DNA of 20,000 bases from Catajapyx aquilonaris (taxonomy: Eukaryota): the NCBI GenBank assembly GCA_000934665.2, contig JYFJ02001400.1:61579-81578 (forward strand), in the 5' to 3' direction. The position numbers were made by a program, and so were the translations under genes. Each line of letters opens with the position of its first letter. The stretch's first letter is position 1. The notes below the pieces were generated by a model that searched no databases, was not told the DNA's origin, and saw nothing but the letters and a program-made list of their open reading frames with translations. Positions 2,086-19,671 of the stretch are shown here, piece by piece.

Positions 2086-2192
2086 GTAGGCGGCCAGGGT
2101 TGCAGGCCACAACTGAGCGCAATTTGGGATTGTTACATGGCCGTTACCGTTAAGTTCATAACTTACTTTTGTGAGCCACAATGTTACAACAG

Positions 2193-3839
2193 GTGTTGAC
2201 CCTTGCAGGCCCGAACAACCAGCTGTACTTTCCGTACCCGCCGCCTCCGTACAACATGTGCACCCAGGGCGCATTCCTCGTGCAGTACCCGCCGCAGTAC
2301 CTGTACGGCTTCAATACTCCACCGCCCCCGGTCATGCAGATGCCCTACACAAACGGCGTACCGTCTGTCCCTGCCAGCCATACACTCAGCCCGCAGATGG
2401 TTCCGCCACCCCCAGGCTACCGGGACCCTCGCCTGAAGAAGCAGTGTGACGCACAGTCCCCTACCGGAGGGAGTGCTGCAGCCGGATCACCAGACCAGCC
2501 GGTGTCGGCTGCTTCCACATCCCTCGAGGATCATTCGAGCTCATCCCCACCTGTTCCCGTCCAGGAGCAAGGGATTTTGTTGCTGTCCAGGACAACTCAT
2601 TATACAAAGTTCGACCGTTATGATCCTCAGCTCCTGGACACTCAGCTGCCACGGTATCCATACCTGTTCCCTGCTGCTGTTTGCATCTCGAGGATTAGTT
2701 ACCTGAGGGATCCGAGAGAAGACGATGAGAGGGCGAGAAGGTTGAAGGAACATGACAAGAGGCGTTGTGATGGGGAAAAAGAGGAAGCTCGCAGCAGGGG
2801 CACGGAGGAAAACCGGGAAAAGCAGTTAAGGCGCAAGCAGCAGTGGGAGGTAATGAAGAAGAGGTTGAACTTGGGAGGAGAGACTGAAGAAGATGCGGAT
2901 GACTTGTTGCCCCATTCCGTGGACATTGTTGAATGCTCTGAGGCCATGTCACCCATTGCTGATACGAATCAACCTGGCGAAATTCCCATCATGTCCCCAC
3001 ATGATAACAGCCAGGATTATTCTCCATGGGATTCTGATGAAGACGATGCTTTGCGCATATGTGAGTCACCACCTGAGGACACGCAGACTTCAGAAAATAC
3101 TGCGCTTCAGCAGGAAGACAAGCAGAATGAAGAAAGGGTTGCAACGTCCAAAGAAGAAGAGTCACCAAACTACCAGGGTGCCATAGAACATTTCGCAACC
3201 TTGGAAGAAGCAGTTCTTGGGATCCAGCTGCATCAGGAGGCGGTGTTTGAGGCCCAGAAAATGCAGCCAAAAGAAGTGTCAGAGAGCCAGAAGACTGTGG
3301 ATGTATTGGAGAACCAAGGTATGGAGAATGGAGTAAGGGACCAATTGGAGGAGCGACCTATGGACTTGGACAGTGGGGATGGACCAGAAGACCAGGTAGA
3401 TGGGAGTGAAGAAAAGGATGAAGCGGATGGAGGCAGACCAGATGACCAGGGTAGACTGGAGGACCACGAGACTGAAGAAAACACTTTGAACAAGCCATCG
3501 CTTGCCATTGCTCAGTTGAGTGTGGAGGAGATGATGTTGGAAATATGCGGCTCCCCACTGAAGAACCTAGAGAACGGCACGGATCCTAACTCGTCGCCTA
3601 TCCCGCCGCAAAAAGCAGAAGATGTGATGGAAGTAATATTTGGTGCCCCAGTGACACAGAACCAAACGAATGACAAGATTCCTGACAGACTACAAGAAAC
3701 CCCAGTGGAACCAGCGGAACCAGTGAATGTGATGGAAGAAAGAGATCCTGATTTGCCCTGCAGCTCTCCACAAGACATGTTGGAAGAAATGATTCCTATC
3801 CCAGTACAACAAGCACCAGTAGTAAAAGAGAATCTCCAT
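2193..3839 (+). CDS. Large exon of an uncharacterised low-complexity protein (Pro/Tyr-rich N-part, charged helix, long acidic Ser-Pro-rich region)
   Basis: 584-codon ORF 2181-3935 with coding-like composition. Strong donor CAT|gtaagt at 3840 (phase 0); the ORF tail after it looks intronic. Confidence 0.85.
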
Positions 3840-4247
3840 GTAAGTGTTTCCATTCCCAGTCGTAAACCCTTCATTGCATTTTGTTTATTGGACATGGGAT
3901 CAGACAAAGAAGCATGTTGGAGCATTTGTTATTGAAGTTTGCGTAAACATTGCATCTAGAGCGGCTCTACAGGAATACAGCAGTTTGGGTCGCAAATGTT
4001 GTAGCGCTGCAATGAATGAAAGGGGACAAGAATTGCCTTAAGACTCCTACTGGGGAAGCCCACCCACACCTGCTCAGTCACTCGCAAATTAATTAATTTT
4101 ATAACTTAAAATGTCCCCATTGACTTACTTTTTGAGTAGAAATTCTTGGAAAGGTTTGGGAAAAGCCTGCCACTCTGAAATCAGAAGGTTGGCGTAATTG
4201 GCTTTTTGTGGGATTCAACGATAAATTGACTGTACTCTTCTTTTAAG

Positions 4248-8290: not shown

Positions 8291-8596
8291 TGAAGGGAGA
8301 CAAGGAGACAAGGAGGTAATTCTGAATGATTCTGAAGAATAAAATTCATGTTGCACACATATGGCATTGCTTGTGGGAATGATGTATTTCGGTTACTTTT
8401 TGGTTACTATTTTACTGCTTTGAATTTACTATTTACTATAATATTTTTTAAAAAAAGAATGGCAGCCCTGTGATGGCAGTTCATGACAGAATTGATTTGG
8501 GAATGGGTTATTATACTTCAACTAGACGTTGAGTTACGGACCCTATTCTATAGCTGTAACACACAAGACAAAATTAAGGTTGATTCCTTGTTGTAG

Positions 8597-9768
8597 GGAA
8601 ACCTGAAGATGACAACAGTGACTCCAGCATTAAGTCAGCTGGAGTGTGCCAACAGAGTACAAAGACCATGACTGACATATTGGGGGAAACAGTCCAAAGC
8701 AGCTTGACTGAGACTAATTCGCGTAAGAAACGCCACAAGACTGACATATTCAGGAAGATTGCCATAAGACTGCCTGGCAAAAAGGGCGCTTCTCCTGAAA
8801 AGTCATACGGAGAGGTCCCTCTGGCAACACAAGAATCACCCATGGAGGTATCAGGTGAAGATTGTACGACACCATCTCAAACTGCTGGGAGGGCAGTGGA
8901 GGAGTGTCAGGGTCATGAAACACTTGCCTGCAGCCAAGAAGAAATTGACGGGATTCCTGCCAAAGAAGCTGCGATGGGGAGTGATGGCCACAGAGAGGAA
9001 GGCACGACCAACATGCCTGGCACTGTGGAAACTCAGTCAGAAACCAACATTATACACGTTTACAAGCGGAAATTCCGCAAACAATCCCTGGCCCGTCGCC
9101 GCCAAATTCTAAACAGCAGCTTTTCCTCCGATGAGCATCCATGTGAGATAGATTGTCATGCCATGGAACGGTATCAGAACGAGGTTTCGTCCCACCGGCG
9201 GCGGTCTGACAGCGGCAACATGTCATCTGATGAACCACCCCTAGTGAAGTATAGGCGTATCATCCCGCTAGCCAAGTACATTGAGCAGGAAGCTGCCAAG
9301 GTGGCAAAAAAGGTGGAAAAGAAGGTGACAAAATATGCCACTGCGTGTGTGACCAACACTGCTACTGCTGCTACTCAGCCCATCCAGAATCCGCAGCAAA
9401 CGGTGACGAAAGATGCAACTGCCACCAACACTGCTGCTGTTACTACTGGGCCCGTCCAGAAGAAGACGGTTGGAGCCACAAACTCTGGTGTTAGAAGACC
9501 AGGTCCATTGAGCAAGACCATGTTCAGGATGCCAGGGGAGGAATCCTGGGAATGGAAAAAACGCCAGGAAGCAGTGCAGGCCAAGAGATGCGAGGAACAG
9601 GGGAACAGTTTCATCATCGTTGGAAGCATTGAGTCATGTCTTGGGTGTGGGACGGAACTGCCCCGAGACTGCTCGTATGATGTCACCGACTGGTCGATAA
9701 CGATTCATTGCAAAAAGTGTAACATGACCACCGTCATGAAGAACGTGTTCGAAACCGATAGCATATAA
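8597..9768 (+). CDS. Terminal coding exon of the uncharacterised gene, ends with a CLGC-x20-CKKC putative zinc ribbon
   Basis: Acceptor ttccttgttgtag|GG is phase 1, matching the donor at 4446. Open frame continues into the 374-aa ORF 8644-9768 (TAA). Extra small exons in the 4.1-kb intron cannot be excluded. Confidence 0.8.
9325..9461 (+). repeat. Intragenic tandem duplication encoding VTKYATACVTNTATAATQPIQ / VTKDATATNTAAVTTGPVQ
   Basis: Two diverged nucleotide copies at 9325-9389 and 9403-9461, frame preserved. Confidence 0.7.
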
Positions 9769-13595: not shown

Positions 13596-16477
13596 TTCTG
13601 CACACAATTATTTTTAGTGTTGTCAGCTATGTGCAATGTTAGTAATGTTGTGGCAGGAAAACACAAGGCGTGCTCAATGTGAGTTGCTACTCGAGTTTTT
13701 ATCCGGAACTCAGGTCAGATACTCCTATATTTTGTAATCTGTTTGTATTTTAAAAACTGGGAGACTTTACAGTCCCTGTGTACTCGATAGTCCCCATTTT
13801 GGTTCTGTAATAAAGTACAAAGTGTAATTGCCATGATACCTGTTGGTTATTTTTGAATGATTTTAAACACCCGCTATAGGCTGTTTTTCTAGGCAATAAT
13901 AATTAGCACATCGTTTCTGCCAGTGGATTCTGCAGTGACAGGTGCGTTGATTGCAACTTCGGAAAAGGGTGCAGCATTATAAACATATTCTTCCCAGCAG
14001 AGCGTCGTCATGTCGGCAGGGAAACTTGTTGTAGAGGACACACATCCGGTGCTCAAGGCATGGCGGGAACCCAACTTTGCTGTGGTGTTGGGGCTTGCCT
14101 GCTCTGACAACTCCCAGGAACCAAATCAGTGGTAGCTTCGTCTACTGGCCCAATCATCCAAGCCGGAAAGGTCTTTTCGGGTATGAGACTGGCAGAAGAC
14201 ACCAGCATTTCTTCTCTTCCTTCTGTCTTGGTGTATCTCTCCATCTGTCCCCTCTTCTCTGTGTGTCTTTGAAGAGCCAAACAGCCTTAGTAGCTTTGGC
14301 TTATTCTGACCCAAATGTTGCAGGAATTCATGTCCGTCATGCAAAAAGAAGCAATGCTGTCCAAAATAAGTTTAAAAATGTAACAAAAACGCACTCCTGT
14401 TACTTCAATTTTCAATTCCTGCTTCAGCCAATGTTATTAATCTGTAGATGACCACCAGGCAGTAGCACTGAAAATTGGGATGAACAGCTAAGATTATCAT
14501 CATTTTCCGGTCTATGCAACTGCTACGGTCTATGGTTGTCACTGCTGAAACACTTACGAAGCCACTATATTAATAATTTATTGCCATATAGCCCATCCAA
14601 CACTCTGAAATTTGCAGAATTCGAGTTTACTGTAGGTAAAATAAAATTAGTTTTTAATGTAGAATACCAAAATTGGACACTTCCAGTAATAGAATGTACT
14701 ATGCAATGTGTCGGTCTGCGTGTATTTTGAGGTGTGTAGTGACATGACTTCCTCCAGAAGTCGGTAGCCTCTTGCCTTAACAAATGACACCCCAAATAAC
14801 ACTGCCAATCTCCCACTTTATGGACATAAATTTTACATGATAGTTATTCTCTTTCGACCTATGAACACTCAAGTGCAAAGCGGTAGGACAATCACACGTC
14901 TGTATTGCAGAGAAACACAAAATGGACCACTTAGGGAGGGGAAAAATATCCTGCAGCTCTTTGGATGCACAGCCTGGAAAAGCTGTTCGTTAGGCCAGTT
15001 GTCTTTGGTTGCTTACTGCAAATTGTAGTAACTCTTAACTCCATCAGAAAATTAGCCTGCAAAACTGCAATGAAGATGGGAATAATTTGTCCATAGGGAT
15101 TTGAGCATGTAAATGTAAGAATAAAAGTTGGGACAGGTTCAAGATGTGCCCCAAGAAATGAAAAGACACCAAAAAAACACCCACCCGGAAATAAAGTATT
15201 CTGCGGAAGTGGACAGATAAAGTGGTGGATTTATTAACTGTTCTCTGTTTGTTTTTCTTGTGCTATGCTTACAATTGAAGTACTAAATAATTTTTTTTCA
15301 AGTGGGGGACAGGAGAAAGCAAGCAAAAAGAAATAAAAGCCCAGTGGCAAACACGTGGAGAAAAACAAAGTCACAGGAAAATTTAAGAAAACTGCTTAAT
15401 AATGGAAAACATGGAAAAGCAGCACAACGCTAAAAAAAAAATGCAGTCAGCTTTTCGTACTGACAATTTACCTACGCGATGGAAAAACAAAAAACAGTTC
15501 GGTTTCCAGGCACTTTTTTGACACATTAAAAACCAGCGTGTGTAAAAAGAGGTCGAGAAATGGCACTGCTACAAAAATTATAATAATATCAATCAAATAG
15601 TATAATAATTATTAGTTTGGTTCCCACAGGCAATCATCACACTTTTGGCCATCTAAATTTTAATTGGTCTCCACACAACACAACTACAGGCCTTTTGCAA
15701 TCACACGTCATGCTTTTCCATACAGCTTGCAAAACACATCATTTAAAAAATTCCCCACCTCTCTAATTATTAAATGGTGTGCTTTTTTTTTCACTTCACA
15801 CAATAGATGTCCATTCTCCATAGCGTGCAAAAAAAAATATTCACTGATGGTTTGTAAACGTATAAGGTCGGCAAGGGAGGAGGCGGGCGGTGAAAAGGTG
15901 GAAACCATTGCATTGCACTTGCACTCAATCCATTTGCTTTTTAAACGTCATTTTTGGTTTTATACGAATGCATACAAAGGTTGGTGTTTTAATCTTCTTT
16001 TTTGAAATCGGTCTTTTTCTACACCAAAAGACAAACAAGCCATGAGACGGTTTTTTGAAAGTCCTTTTAAAAAATGGCAGAAACTGCAGTTAGGGGGGGG
16101 GGGGNATAAATAATAGAGTAGAAAAACAGCCTATTTGGGAGTGTCGTGTTGGGAATCAGGTCGACGGGATAAGGATAGGAGAACTTGTGACCTTTCGCAC
16201 CTTCCAGAGGTCAAGGAAGCAACCAGTCTCCTTTTTAAACTGACCAAAATAATTAGAGGAAGTCATACAGGAACCACTATCTTAGGATCGTTTCCTGAGA
16301 GGAAAAAAAAAACACCTACCACAGTTAAAAAAAAAAACAATTTCAATCACTGTCAAAAGGTTGCAGTGGACACGAAATAACACAATCATCCGCGGGGGGG
16401 ATCACTCGCGCACTACTTGATGGCAAATCCTTCTTTTATTTTCCAATTCAAAACTCGCCTGCGGAAGGGCGAACCAC

Positions 16478-16690
16478 TCATAAGAGCTTCTCAGTGACAG
16501 AACTGGCGGTGGTGCAGGAACTGATGGTGGAGGTGGGCGGGTCCTCTTCCTCCTCCTCTTCGTCTTCCCCAGCAGGATCGGAGGAGGAGAGCTTCTTCCG
16601 ACCTCGAGGATCGGCCGAGACCTCCGCAGTGGCCACACTCGCGGCTCCTCCCACTGCTCCAACTCCTGCGCCCCCGCCGGGAAGTAGTTG
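16478..16690 (-). CDS. Putative stop-codon readthrough extension of ABHD17 (70 codons: QLLPGGGAGVGAVGGAASVATAEVSADPRGRKKLSSSDPAGEDEEEEEEDPPTSTISSCTTASSVTEKLL*)
   Basis: In frame with the ABHD17 TGA, context TGA-CAA-CTA, open to a second TGA at 16480-16478. The GC-rich, coding-like composition ends shortly after the second stop. Confidence 0.7.
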   Translation of the reverse strand, partial: QLLPGGGAGVGAVGGAASVATAEVSADPRGRKKLSSSDPAGEDEEEEEEDPPTSTISSCTTASSVTEKLL

Positions 16691-16774
16691 TCAGTTGACC
16701 AGTTCCACTGTCACAAATTGCTTCAACCTCTCTAGATACTGGTTGTACAGTTCCACGTCATTGTGCCCTGCTCC
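16691..16774 (-). CDS. ABHD17: ABHD17 coding exon 3 [27 protein letters not shown], contains the catalytic His
   Basis: Acceptor tttcag|GGA, phase 0, 84 nt ending in TGA at 16693-16691. Matches the family C-terminus [21 protein letters not shown]. Spliced total is 295 aa. Confidence 0.96.
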
Positions 16775-16923
16775 CTGAAATGGAATAGGGTCGTTAAAAA
16801 CAGACCACACCAAACAAGATTGGCAAATCACATGGGCGTGATTAGAGTAGACTTTTTCATGTTTACTGTCTTATAGCGTTCTATAAGACTTTTTTCTTCG
16901 AAAACGTCTAAAACTGCAAAAGG

Positions 16924-17453
16924 ATCCCTTCCAGGATTGATTTTGCAGCGTTCCACAATAATTTTTAATGTAAGTTGTTCCTCATAATATTACTCGTAGA
17001 TGAAAAAGTGAAACTCAGTTTTTAAATATTTGTCCTTTGAGTAGGGAAAACCTGGCCTCAAAAGTCGATATTTTTTTTTGAATGGGAATGACCACCCAAA
17101 GAATTGGCCAGAATCAACTATTGTGTGAAAAATTAATCATAAAAACTTCGGAAGCTTTTTAGTGCCTGCTGTGGCCATTTTCCATTTTTTAAAAAATATT
17201 TGAAATGGCCACAGCAGGCACTAAAAAGCTTCTGGAATTTTAACATTAATTGTTCAGACAATCATTGATTATGGCCTATTCTTTAAAGTGCAACAAAATT
17301 GCAAATTCTCAGACTTTTTGAGCCCAGGTTTTCGCTACTCAGGGGGACATATTTTTAAAAACTGTGCTTCACTTTTTCATGTAATATTATGAGGAACAAC
17401 TTCCAATAAAAATTATTATTGCGGAACACTGCATAATCAATTCTGAAAGGGAT
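16924..17453. mobile_element. Foldback MITE filling most of the ABHD17 last intron
   Basis: Arms 16924-17180 and 17203-17453 are inverted copies, with a perfect 30-bp core (17151-17180 / 17203-17232) around a 22-nt loop. Confidence 0.85.
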
Positions 17454-17515
17454 GCATTCAGATTTCATCGGCACAAATTAAACTTCAAATGCAAAAAAAT
17501 GTGGGCGCTATTTAC

Positions 17516-17648
17516 CTCCACCCATAGGGGCTCGACGGCCCGTGGACACTTCTCGTAGATGGCCAGGCCATGGGAGAAGTCGATGACCTCATCTTCAGTT
17601 CCATGGATGACCAGCACTGGCGAAGTCACTTTCGGCACTTTGTCAATA
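17516..17648 (-). CDS. ABHD17: ABHD17 coding exon 2 (S)[44 protein letters not shown], contains the catalytic Asp region
   Basis: Manual translation of the minus strand. Acceptor ttttggcag|T completes AG+T=Ser, 133 nt, donor GAG|gtaaa. Matches the conserved ABHD17 [15 protein letters not shown] motif. Not in the ORF track. Confidence 0.96.
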
Positions 17649-18785: not shown

Positions 18786-19456
18786 CTGGGGAAGGCATCG
18801 AAGAACCAGGTGCGCTTGGTGTTTGGGAAGGCCACCCTCATCCCGGACATGAGTGGCGAGTGCAGTATGACTGCTCCGACCTCGTACCTGGAGGCCAGGT
18901 CAACAGTCGGCACAGTCCCGATGCTCTGTCCATACAGGATGATGTTCTCTGGCGATATCCCATACCTGGTTCGAAGCGCGTGCCACGCAGCGTCTATGTC
19001 CGCATACAAATTCTTCTCCGAGGGCTTACCAGTGCTGACCCCATATCCCGCGTAATCGTAGCTGAAGATATTGCAGTTTATCCTGGATCCAAGTCCCAAG
19101 TAAAAGCTGCTCATCTGTCCCAAATCGACCGCGTTCCCATGTGAAAACAGGATGGTGAAGCGCGCAGACGGCGTGCACCGGACGAACATGCAGGCGATCC
19201 GGTTTCCCCGCAACGTCCGTGAGAAGAAGACTTCAACATTGTCCTTCTCCCTCTCAGAATATTGCCATTCCGCCTTTTCGGTCAGTTCCAAATGGTGCTT
19301 TGATCCCCCGCCTCCCACCGGGTCGCCTGAGGGTGCCTCCGGGACAAACTTGTATGTGGGCTCAGGCGGAAGGAAGGCCAGCTTGGCCGCAATGCGGGAC
19401 GGGAAGGGCGGACAGCAGAACAGGCAGCACAGCTCGCTCAGGCTGAGCCCGTTCAT
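18786..19456 (-). CDS. ABHD17: ABHD17 (FAM108)-family alpha/beta-hydrolase protein depalmitoylase, coding exon 1 (223 codons + 2 nt)
   Basis: [36 protein letters not shown]-terminal palmitoylated Cys cluster, [21 protein letters not shown], nucleophile elbow YGQSIG, ending [10 protein letters not shown]|gtaat (phase-2 donor at 18785). The true ATG is at 19456; the ORF track starts 4 codons earlier at a GTG. Confidence 0.97.
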
Positions 19457-19514
19457 AGTGCGGCACACTCACGACTAATGCGGCTCCACCTTTGCAAATA
19501 AAAACAGAGAGTCA

Positions 19515-19671
19515 TGACCCCCTGATGACCTCCCACATGATGACCTCTCACCAGTGTTGCAGGTCACCGTCCCCTCCGGTCCACGCCCCTCAGGGTCAGC
19601 TGATCATTGTTGGGCCTCATCCTCCGTCCCCCTCCCCTCCCACCCCCGCCCCAGAGGATGACCTTTGACCT
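19515..19671. promoter_or_regulatory. Cluster of seven RGGTCA nuclear-receptor half-sites including a perfect DR1
   Basis: Half-sites at 19515, 19526, 19541, 19561, 19593, 19659 and 19666; TGACCT-T-TGACCT at 19659-19671. Confidence 0.6.

Follow-up and report, generated by a model that had tools for sequence, protein, structure and literature searches.

We report that the UGA stop codon of an ABHD17 gene (palmitoyl-protein hydrolase) from Catajapyx aquilonaris is probably subject to functional readthrough. The gene, of three exons, lies on the minus strand of a window of 20,000 nucleotides (nt), by which we mean the whole stretch of DNA analysed (NCBI GenBank assembly GCA_000934665.2, contig JYFJ02001400.1, positions 61,579 to 81,578 of the forward strand). 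The earlier note on this DNA had proposed programmed readthrough giving a C-terminally extended ABHD17, and the related loci support it: the stop, the reading frame and a short motif at the end of the extension are conserved among them, and the ratio of non-synonymous to synonymous substitution (dN/dS) is of the coding type, which makes programmed UGA readthrough the best reading of the window stop and, in our judgement, a probable one. The isoform would carry the conserved terminal motif, whose function is a prediction.

The stop, the extension and its end

The three exons joined form 295 codons without a stop, and the canonical protein ends in ...FVTVELVN, coinciding with the ends of named ABHD17 family members, which show a matching end of 27-28 residues. 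Around this end the window holds the following features, where ORF2 stands for the open reading frame (ORF) that continues in frame past the first stop:

16694..16774, minus strand: last coding exon of ABHD17, the final 27 canonical codons, with the catalytic His motif GAGHND inside
16691..16693, minus strand: first stop TGA, the proposed leaky stop, with AAC before it and C after it
16685..16690, minus strand: CAACTA hexamer directly 3' of the first stop, which fits CARYYA
16481..16690, minus strand: in-frame extension (ORF2) of 70 sense codons, QLLPGGGAGVGAVGGAASVATAEVSADPRGRKKLSSSDPAGEDEEEEEEDPPTSTISSCTTASSVTEKLL
16481..16531, minus strand: conserved end of the extension, Ser/Thr block and terminal motif, STISSCTTASSVTEKLL, with likeness to loci L001 and L004
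16481..16492, minus strand: terminal tetrapeptide EKLL, a case of E-x-hydrophobic-hydrophobic, at the free C-terminus
16478..16480, minus strand: second stop TGA-G, with just 9 more codons open behind it

On re-reading of the letters, the coordinates, the peptide and the length of the predicted extended form (295+1+70 = 366 residues) given in the earlier note were all correct. The extension is composed of a stretch of Gly/Ala, the sequence RGRKK, a run of acidic residues and a block of Ser/Thr, ends in SSVTEKLL, and matches no family in a Pfam search of its 70 residues. None of the 70 codons is an ATG, so separate initiation is unlikely. One of its peptides, LSSSDPAGEDEEEEEEDPPTSTISSCTTASSVTEK, is a candidate for targeted mass spectrometry.

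Conservation of the stop, the frame and the terminal motif

A protein search with the last exon plus the extension (the stop given as X) returned 88 proteins among 1643 candidates. By our count 20 of them are contig gene calls in which the stop is translated as W and the frame goes on; 16 of these 20 reach EKLL, EKFL, ERVV, ERIV or ETLL, either as their last residues or where another W stands. Since such calls are artefacts of a gene caller that takes TGA for Trp, the comparison was moved to the DNA. Loci were found there via two peptide patterns that lie inside ORF1 only (GAGHNDVE and LY[NSG]QYLERL), ORF1 being the frame that ends at the first stop. The best 80 of 141 confirmed stretches, ranked against the window's 98-residue query, were kept, and they contain 69 distinct ORF1+ORF2 sequences besides the window.

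The first stop is TGA-C in 52 of the 69 sequences, 49 of which are complete while 3 run off their contig. In 34 of the 49, the in-frame ORF2 ends in the motif E-x-[LFIVM]-[LVMI]. The motif was found in none of the 17 sequences with another stop or context (TGA-T 10, TGA-G 1, TAA 5, TAG 1, the TAG locus running off its contig), and in 1 of 112 out-of-frame control ORFs. Motif-bearing in-frame ORF2s span 6 to 439 codons; the longest single ORF2s measure 439, 247, 221 and 140 codons, and the median at TGA-C loci is 58.5 codons in frame versus 29 and 6.5 in the other frames. The context AA[CT]-TGA-C is common to all 35 distinct motif-bearing sequences, window included, which cover insect-like, crustacean-like and mollusc-like branches; the +4 position is C in 35/35 and the +5 position A in 29/35. 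These 35 sequences end in EKLL (21), EKFL (4), EALV (3), EKLM (2), ETLL (2), EVFV (2) and EKLV (1), and the second stop of the 34 extensions is TAG in 18, TGA in 12 and TAA in 4 cases. Across ABHD17 relatives, the stop and the frame, whose conservation the earlier note had put forward as a check, are therefore kept wherever the motif is present. No extension signature was seen in the cnidarian-like, vertebrate-like and some of the arthropod-like loci, which have TGA-T, TAA or TAG.

The readthrough stop of tobamoviruses is UAG, and the hexamer of their readthrough context is CAR-YYA. The window resembles this context in its TGA CAA CTA, CAACTA being identical in L002-L006 and CAATTA present in L001, L056 and L061; it differs in that its stop is UGA. 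The earlier note had read the hexamer as a signal: its presence in the window stands, but just 8 of the 35 family members fit CARYYA (counted by eye), so that the hexamer is not conserved and is probably not an essential signal. In L013 (match 952-1032), which has the longest extension, 439 codons follow TGA CTAGGG and end in ..GEKLL TGA; CTAG after a stop, with which this hexamer starts, is a mammalian high-readthrough context.

Coding-type evolution of the extension

We computed dN/dS by the Nei-Gojobori method, over the extension only, for eight close pairs of relatives and obtained ratios of 0.05-0.45. Within the L021 group the values of dN/dS are 0.015/0.31 (L021/L022), 0.023/0.35 (L021/L026), 0.023/0.42 (L022/L026) and 0.10/0.61 for a fourth pair; the other pairs give 0.10/0.23 (L011/L012), 0.20/0.66 (L024/L036), 0.015/0.070 (L052/L055) and 0.21/1.70 (L009/L048). 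Nucleotide gaps within the ORF2 of close pairs are all multiples of three ([3,6], [3], [3,9], [3], [3,3,9]), whereas over the 200 nt past the second stop they are not (e.g. [3,7,15,3,1,4]) and identity is lower. The synonymous bias that the earlier note had looked to as a test is thus found in these pairs, together with the conservation of frame across indels.

For the window itself, every relative is too distant for a dN/dS of its own (with L004 dS reaches saturation, at 2.35, and with L002 it could not be computed), so its coding-type evolution is argued through homology only. Homologues of its extension are L001, L002, L004, L008 and L015. The window shares with L001, L002, L004 and L008 both the QLLP that comes right after the stop, with synonymously differing codons (CAA/CAG, CTA/TTA/CTG), and the pattern S-T-[IV]-S-S-x-T-T-x-S-S-[VI]-T-E-K-L-L ahead of the second stop. 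Over the last 17 residues, window and L001 are identical at 11/17 positions (E=2e-5), and the end of the extension is identical to that of L004 at 17/25. Overall, the comparison of sequences indicates that the region between the two stops bears the evolutionary signature by which functional readthrough genes are recognized.

The window by itself, and points that weigh against readthrough

Several observations weigh against this interpretation, the first group of which comes from the window. All six frames are open across its GC-rich stretch (GC 0.62-0.65 over 16500-16724 versus 0.32-0.45 in the intron and downstream), the other minus-strand frames staying open for 95 and 65 codons past the stop versus 70 in frame, and 241 of 2000 shuffles of the 210 nt (12%) have no in-frame stop. 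The GC content of the extension by codon position, 0.69/0.60/0.61, is without the third-position (GC3) bias of the coding sequence (0.54/0.43/0.71), and the codon-usage log-likelihood does not separate the frames (-3.2 bits for frame 0 versus -0.4 for frame +1). The minimum free energy of the RNA after the stop, -62.5 kcal/mol (z = -0.77), is matched by 47 of 200 shuffles; there is no sign of a stimulatory RNA structure 3' of the first stop. The earlier note had counted the open, GC-rich and coding-like aspect of this block in favour of readthrough. With six open frames and codon statistics that do not discriminate, that aspect is no evidence by itself, and we drop the argument: the window by itself is not convincing for readthrough.

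These same properties (open frames, open shuffles, no GC3 bias, codon usage without frame preference), together with a GAG/GAA-rich simple repeat in the block, are those of a GC-rich, low-complexity 3' untranslated region (UTR) that is open by accident and is not effectively translated. We nevertheless hold such a chance origin to be highly improbable, since the start (QLLP) and the end (STxSSxTTxSSVTEKLL) of the extension recur in other species, in the same frame and between the same bounding stops, and since purifying selection and the terminal motif are family-wide. It is this conservation in other species that gives a signal beyond chance, which the window alone does not.

The second group of observations comes from the survey and its scope. 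Ranking against a 98-residue query from the window means that the sample favours arthropod-like and extension-like loci, and the terminal motif was defined post hoc, after the data had been seen. Of the complete TGA-C loci, 15/49 do not have the motif at the end of ORF2. Arthropod-like loci without a sign of readthrough are present as well, namely L010 and L016 (TGA-T), L037 (TAA, adjoining Artemia) and L051 (TGA-T, adjoining oribatid mites). In L002, TEKLL is followed by a sense codon, with no stop there. Finally, for every species considered here the case for translation past the stop is made from sequence comparison. Weighed against the conserved stop, frame, substitution pattern and motif, these points leave functional readthrough as the reading we prefer.

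Two sets of loci deserve description in their own right. Some motif-less TGA-C loci (L014, L017 and L019, compared with L012) resemble frameshifted or indel variants of motif-bearing lineages. L017 and L019 are near-identical to L012, L018 and L020 until ‘..SNQDLDKK’ and then continue in another frame (KTKQFRKVFV.. versus PNSSEKFL); a run of A residues that differs by 1 nt in length probably accounts for this, through either a fault of assembly or a polymorphism. L002 (1893-2021) and L003 (571-699) start with TGA CAACTA and reach ...SSITEKLL, where a Ser codon replaces the second stop and the frame runs on to 188 codons; this lineage has either lost the second stop or carries a further extension.

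Unlikely alternatives: splicing, editing or selenocysteine insertion

A rare donor upstream of the stop could join an acceptor in or before the extension, so that the UGA is bypassed by alternative splicing. The NCBI models of two wasps (P0072, P0085) and of Anopheles epiroticus (P0088) have long stop-free C-terminal extensions, as if spliced, and the readthrough region of D. melanogaster holds an intron, being given as two intervals in its table row (Jungreis et al, 2016). Against this, 14 intron-free contigs resembling complementary DNA (cDNA) contain the whole coding sequence from the Met, with one in-frame TGA between ORF1 and ORF2 and the motif at the end. The TGA staying in frame between the ORFs of what look like mature transcripts, splicing seems not to remove the stop there, which speaks, for these relatives, against the concern, raised in the earlier note, that the region is reached by a splice skipping the stop. 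Splicing would also not require ORF2 to be in frame with ORF1 across the TGA, and the frame is kept in 34 sequences; conserved residues start at the very first codon past the stop (QLLP); and among the GT sites of the last exon there is no good donor consensus (judged by eye, unscored). The wasp and mosquito models have the appearance of gene predictions made so as to avoid the stop. We therefore regard splicing as a very unlikely explanation.

Note that these named models have very long stop-free C-terminal extensions (P0072 and P0085, from vespid wasps, total 684-686 residues and P0088 1150 residues), and that the wasp models contain ...KKFLW..., which resembles the motif with a Trp codon after it. 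Taken with the third ORF of 786 codons in AGAP013018, described below, they suggest a third, long isoform in some insects. A tblastn search of the long tails of P0072, P0085, P0088, P0003 and P0058 against the window matched the last exon only, and a third ORF is absent from the window.

Adenosine-to-inosine editing, in which ADAR would convert the UGA of some transcripts into UGI, decoded like UGG as Trp, predicts an evolutionary signature identical to that of readthrough (TGA without exception, a frame that is maintained and an ORF2 that evolves as coding sequence), and comparative tests do not separate the two. All of the cDNA-like contigs read TGA, not TGG, at the site, so that editing would be at most a minority event. 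In addition, the edited A would have G as its 5' neighbour, which is the one least liked by ADAR; the strict C at +4 is a known signature of leaky UGA termination; and the dipteran orthologues are listed as readthrough in Supplemental Data S1 of Jungreis et al (2016). Editing is, like splicing, an explanation to which we give very little weight.

The last candidate for decoding the UGA as sense is selenocysteine insertion directed by a selenocysteine insertion sequence (SECIS) in the 3' UTR. As in selenoproteins, a TGA in frame is conserved in this family and so is the coding sequence beyond it, and the stop is strictly TGA in every extension-bearing relative. Unlike in selenoproteins, no SECIS was found: there was no match at E<=10 in the window between 14500 and 17000 and no Rfam match of any kind, SECIS included, at the gathering score in 20 related loci, and the search for RNA families over the same part of the window gave three chance-level matches only (E 1.5-7.6). 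Furthermore, in 12 of the 34 extensions the second stop is itself a TGA, which has to terminate, and the UGA falls within a variable linker, not in a redox motif. SECISearch3 was run on the Anopheles candidates in the published analysis and excluded one, AGAP000358 (Jungreis et al, 2016; PMC5100048). Membership of the selenoproteins is rejected for want of a SECIS in the sequence scanned, and we consider this the least probable of the explanations discussed.

Phylogenetic reach

We built a quick maximum-likelihood tree of 64 rows (the window, 40 named proteins and 23 full-length loci); taxon labels of the loci are inferred from this tree and from last-exon identity to the named proteins. The window groups with Artemia, Armadillidium and many marine loci, with support of 88-89 in the Shimodaira-Hasegawa-like approximate likelihood ratio test (SH-aLRT), and no starred clade contains the window. 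L007 is sister to Armadillidium (100), and L008 falls among insects. Three loci with TGA-C and the motif (L053, L062 and L080) group with Haliotis, Aplysia and Dreissena (93), L080 pairing with Dreissena at 98. In the mollusc-like loci and their kin the extension is down to 6-10 codons (HMEALV, QLPEALV, QKEVFV, HKEVFV, QRRRCKEALV), so that the linker before the tetrapeptide ranges from a minimum of 2 residues (HM-EALV and QK-EVFV, mollusc-like) to a maximum of 435.

It is about an even chance that ABHD17 readthrough dates back to the last ancestor shared by arthropods and molluscs, with the leaky UGA as a switch that adds a docking or sorting signal and the terminal tetrapeptide as its sole constant product. 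Such a switch would give a fixed small share of a membrane-bound depalmitoylase a second place or a second set of substrates, for example PDZ scaffolds.

Proposed mechanism

Readthrough of UGA inserts Trp, Arg or Cys. In the mechanism that we propose, most ribosomes would terminate at the UGA at 16693-16691 and yield the 295-residue enzyme, while in a minority a near-cognate tRNA would be accepted in the leaky AAC-UGA-C context; these ribosomes would translate the 70 further codons to the second UGA and give the 366-residue isoform. The tail would consist of a disordered linker, freely varying among species, and would end in a Ser/Thr block and E-x-hydrophobic-hydrophobic, EKLL in the window. 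A Ser/Thr-rich block precedes the terminal motif in many lineages.

The position of the motif at 2 to ~435 residues from the folded core, at the end of a tail predicted to be disordered, favours its being read as a short linear motif in trans, by a partner that would recognize the free carboxyl end. Binding of this partner would alter the location of the enzyme or the substrates within its reach, as a docking or sorting signal does. In an AlphaFold2 model of read-through L008, the closest full-length relative (317 residues), the hydrolase core is confident and the predicted local distance difference test score (pLDDT) is <50 at residues 295-317. An intramolecular role of the tail was considered and rejected, as the tail, at this pLDDT, does not dock onto the core in that model. 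More specifically, the terminal motif could tentatively be a ligand of PDZ type or sorting type, an assignment that we find doubtful. Of the candidates, a PDZ ligand is the one we would favour, but this part is weak because K, R, T, A and V all occur at position -2, a variability not typical of PDZ ligands.

Orthologues already catalogued and other readthrough systems

Orthologues of the window gene are listed as TGA-C readthrough candidates in Supplemental Data S1 of Jungreis et al (2016; Mol Biol Evol, PMC5100048). The rows concerned are CG33096-RG of D. melanogaster (79 codons, identified by homology, its extension given as two intervals) and, from A. gambiae, AGAP010402-RA (69 codons) and AGAP013018-RA (93 codons, a case of double readthrough whose third ORF has 786 codons). 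Each of the three has TGA-C and is labelled stop-orthologous and ‘Ancient’, the latter meaning common to Drosophila and Anopheles. In that paper, splicing, downstream ATG and SECIS explanations are stated to have been screened out, and abundant readthrough is proposed to have arisen in Pancrustacea (PMC5100048).

As far as the table rows go, which give lengths and stops and not terminal residues, the dipteran candidates and the window, itself not dipteran, have in common the gene family, the TGA-C and the length of the extension (79, 69 and 93 codons versus 70). They differ in that an intron interrupts the fly extension but not that of the window, and in that AGAP013018 has a third ORF of 786 codons where the window has 9 codons behind the second stop. 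On this comparison the window gene is a predicted further orthologue of a catalogued readthrough candidate, in a non-dipteran arthropod. With the dipteran orthologues already catalogued, ABHD17 readthrough is not new as a kind. One supplementary file of a 2026 preprint (PMC13278127) does not contain CG33096/FBgn0053096. Full-text literature searches found no paper discussing ABHD17 readthrough (CG33096 is named in a paper about C. elegans aho-3), and a full-text search found none linking a C-terminal readthrough extension to a PDZ-binding motif.

The peroxisomal targeting signal type 1 (PTS1) has the consensus [SAC]-[KRH]-[LM]. Readthrough that exposes a cryptic C-terminal targeting signal is described for peroxisomal LDHB and MDH1 in mammals and for glycolytic enzymes in fungi (PMC4359377, PMC4207609, PMC5133446). 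Common to LDHB/MDH1, as described there, and ABHD17 are a UGA in a short leaky context and, as a proposal in the case of ABHD17, a few functional residues at the free C-terminus. Unlike them, ABHD17 ends in K-L-L, A-L-V or V-F-V, which is not a PTS1, and its extension reaches up to 439 codons.

Gene structure and other features of the window

The remaining parts of the ABHD17 gene are the following:

18786..19456, minus strand: ABHD17 coding exon 1, from the ORF listing, with the ATG at 19456-19454 and the donor AG/GTAA
17516..17648, minus strand: ABHD17 coding exon 2 (..SIDKVPKV...EPLWVE), with the acceptor cag/ and the donor /gtaaat
16435..16440, minus strand: AATAAA, a possible poly(A) signal, 38 nt past the second stop

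Exon 1 carries the N-terminal Cys cluster LCCLFCCPP and the GQSIG nucleophile elbow, matches Hydrolase_4 in Pfam (E=5.4e-7) and shares 85-86% identity with proteins of ticks, crickets, beetles and others that bear the name ABHD17B or palmitoyl-protein hydrolase. The marks of the ABHD17 depalmitoylase class (Hydrolase_4 core, GxSxG, His motif and N-terminal Cys cluster) are all present, as judged from the sequence and from the AlphaFold2 model of a relative, and the gene is predicted to encode an ABHD17 depalmitoylase of a pancrustacean-like arthropod. If the AATAAA at 16435-16440 is used, the 3' UTR behind the extension is only ~60 nt long.

A single contig of sequencing run X1, 311 nt long, connects 19486 to 19549 on the minus strand, just 5' of the ATG (19456). 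The gap of 62 nt (19487-19548) ends in GT..AG and looks like a spliced 5' UTR intron, a deletion allele being the alternative; being spliced-looking, it hints at transcript-derived sequence of the ABHD17 gene in X1. Contigs of runs X1 and X2 leave 16235-16675 uncovered, a repeat there having been skipped. The last intron holds a foldback element of ~460 nt (16957-17417), whose arms pair 16957-16993 with 17381-17417 (95% complementary), 16997-17035 with 17345-17383 and 17019-17063 with 17316-17360, around a central 49-nt hairpin at 17142-17241. DNA contig depth is 130-2241 over 16823-17557 versus ~30 on the flanks, which marks the element as a high-copy repeat, and it is probably akin to a miniature inverted-repeat transposable element.

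At ~16095-16106 an N is followed by a poly-C run (minus strand), and contigs from both runs stop at 16104; this is a weak point of the assembly. On the plus strand, two long open frames (2175-3935, 586 codons, and 8584-9768, 394 codons) are acidic and Ser/Pro-rich. Neither frame matches a Pfam family, and they are probably exons of a neighbouring gene.

Significance

ABHD17 enzymes depalmitoylate signalling and synaptic proteins such as N-Ras and PSD-95, and how they are aimed at their substrates is a standing question, to which a conserved isoform of low abundance with a docking motif would give a testable handle in any arthropod or mollusc model. The Drosophila orthologue CG33096, already a listed candidate, offers a model for the function of the tail. 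What may be new here is that the C-terminus is invariably E-x-hydrophobic-hydrophobic, and that mollusc-like loci whose extensions have only 6-10 codons possess it too.

For the recoding field, a strict AAY-UGA-C followed by an extension of anything from 6 to 439 codons with an invariant E-x-hydrophobic-hydrophobic end would be a clean natural example of readthrough appending a short linear motif. For genome annotation, a 366-residue isoform would have to stand beside the 295-residue one. If the mollusc loci hold, one readthrough event reaches well beyond Pancrustacea, and ABHD17 readthrough would then be among the oldest conserved recoding events in animals and not a dipteran or pancrustacean invention.

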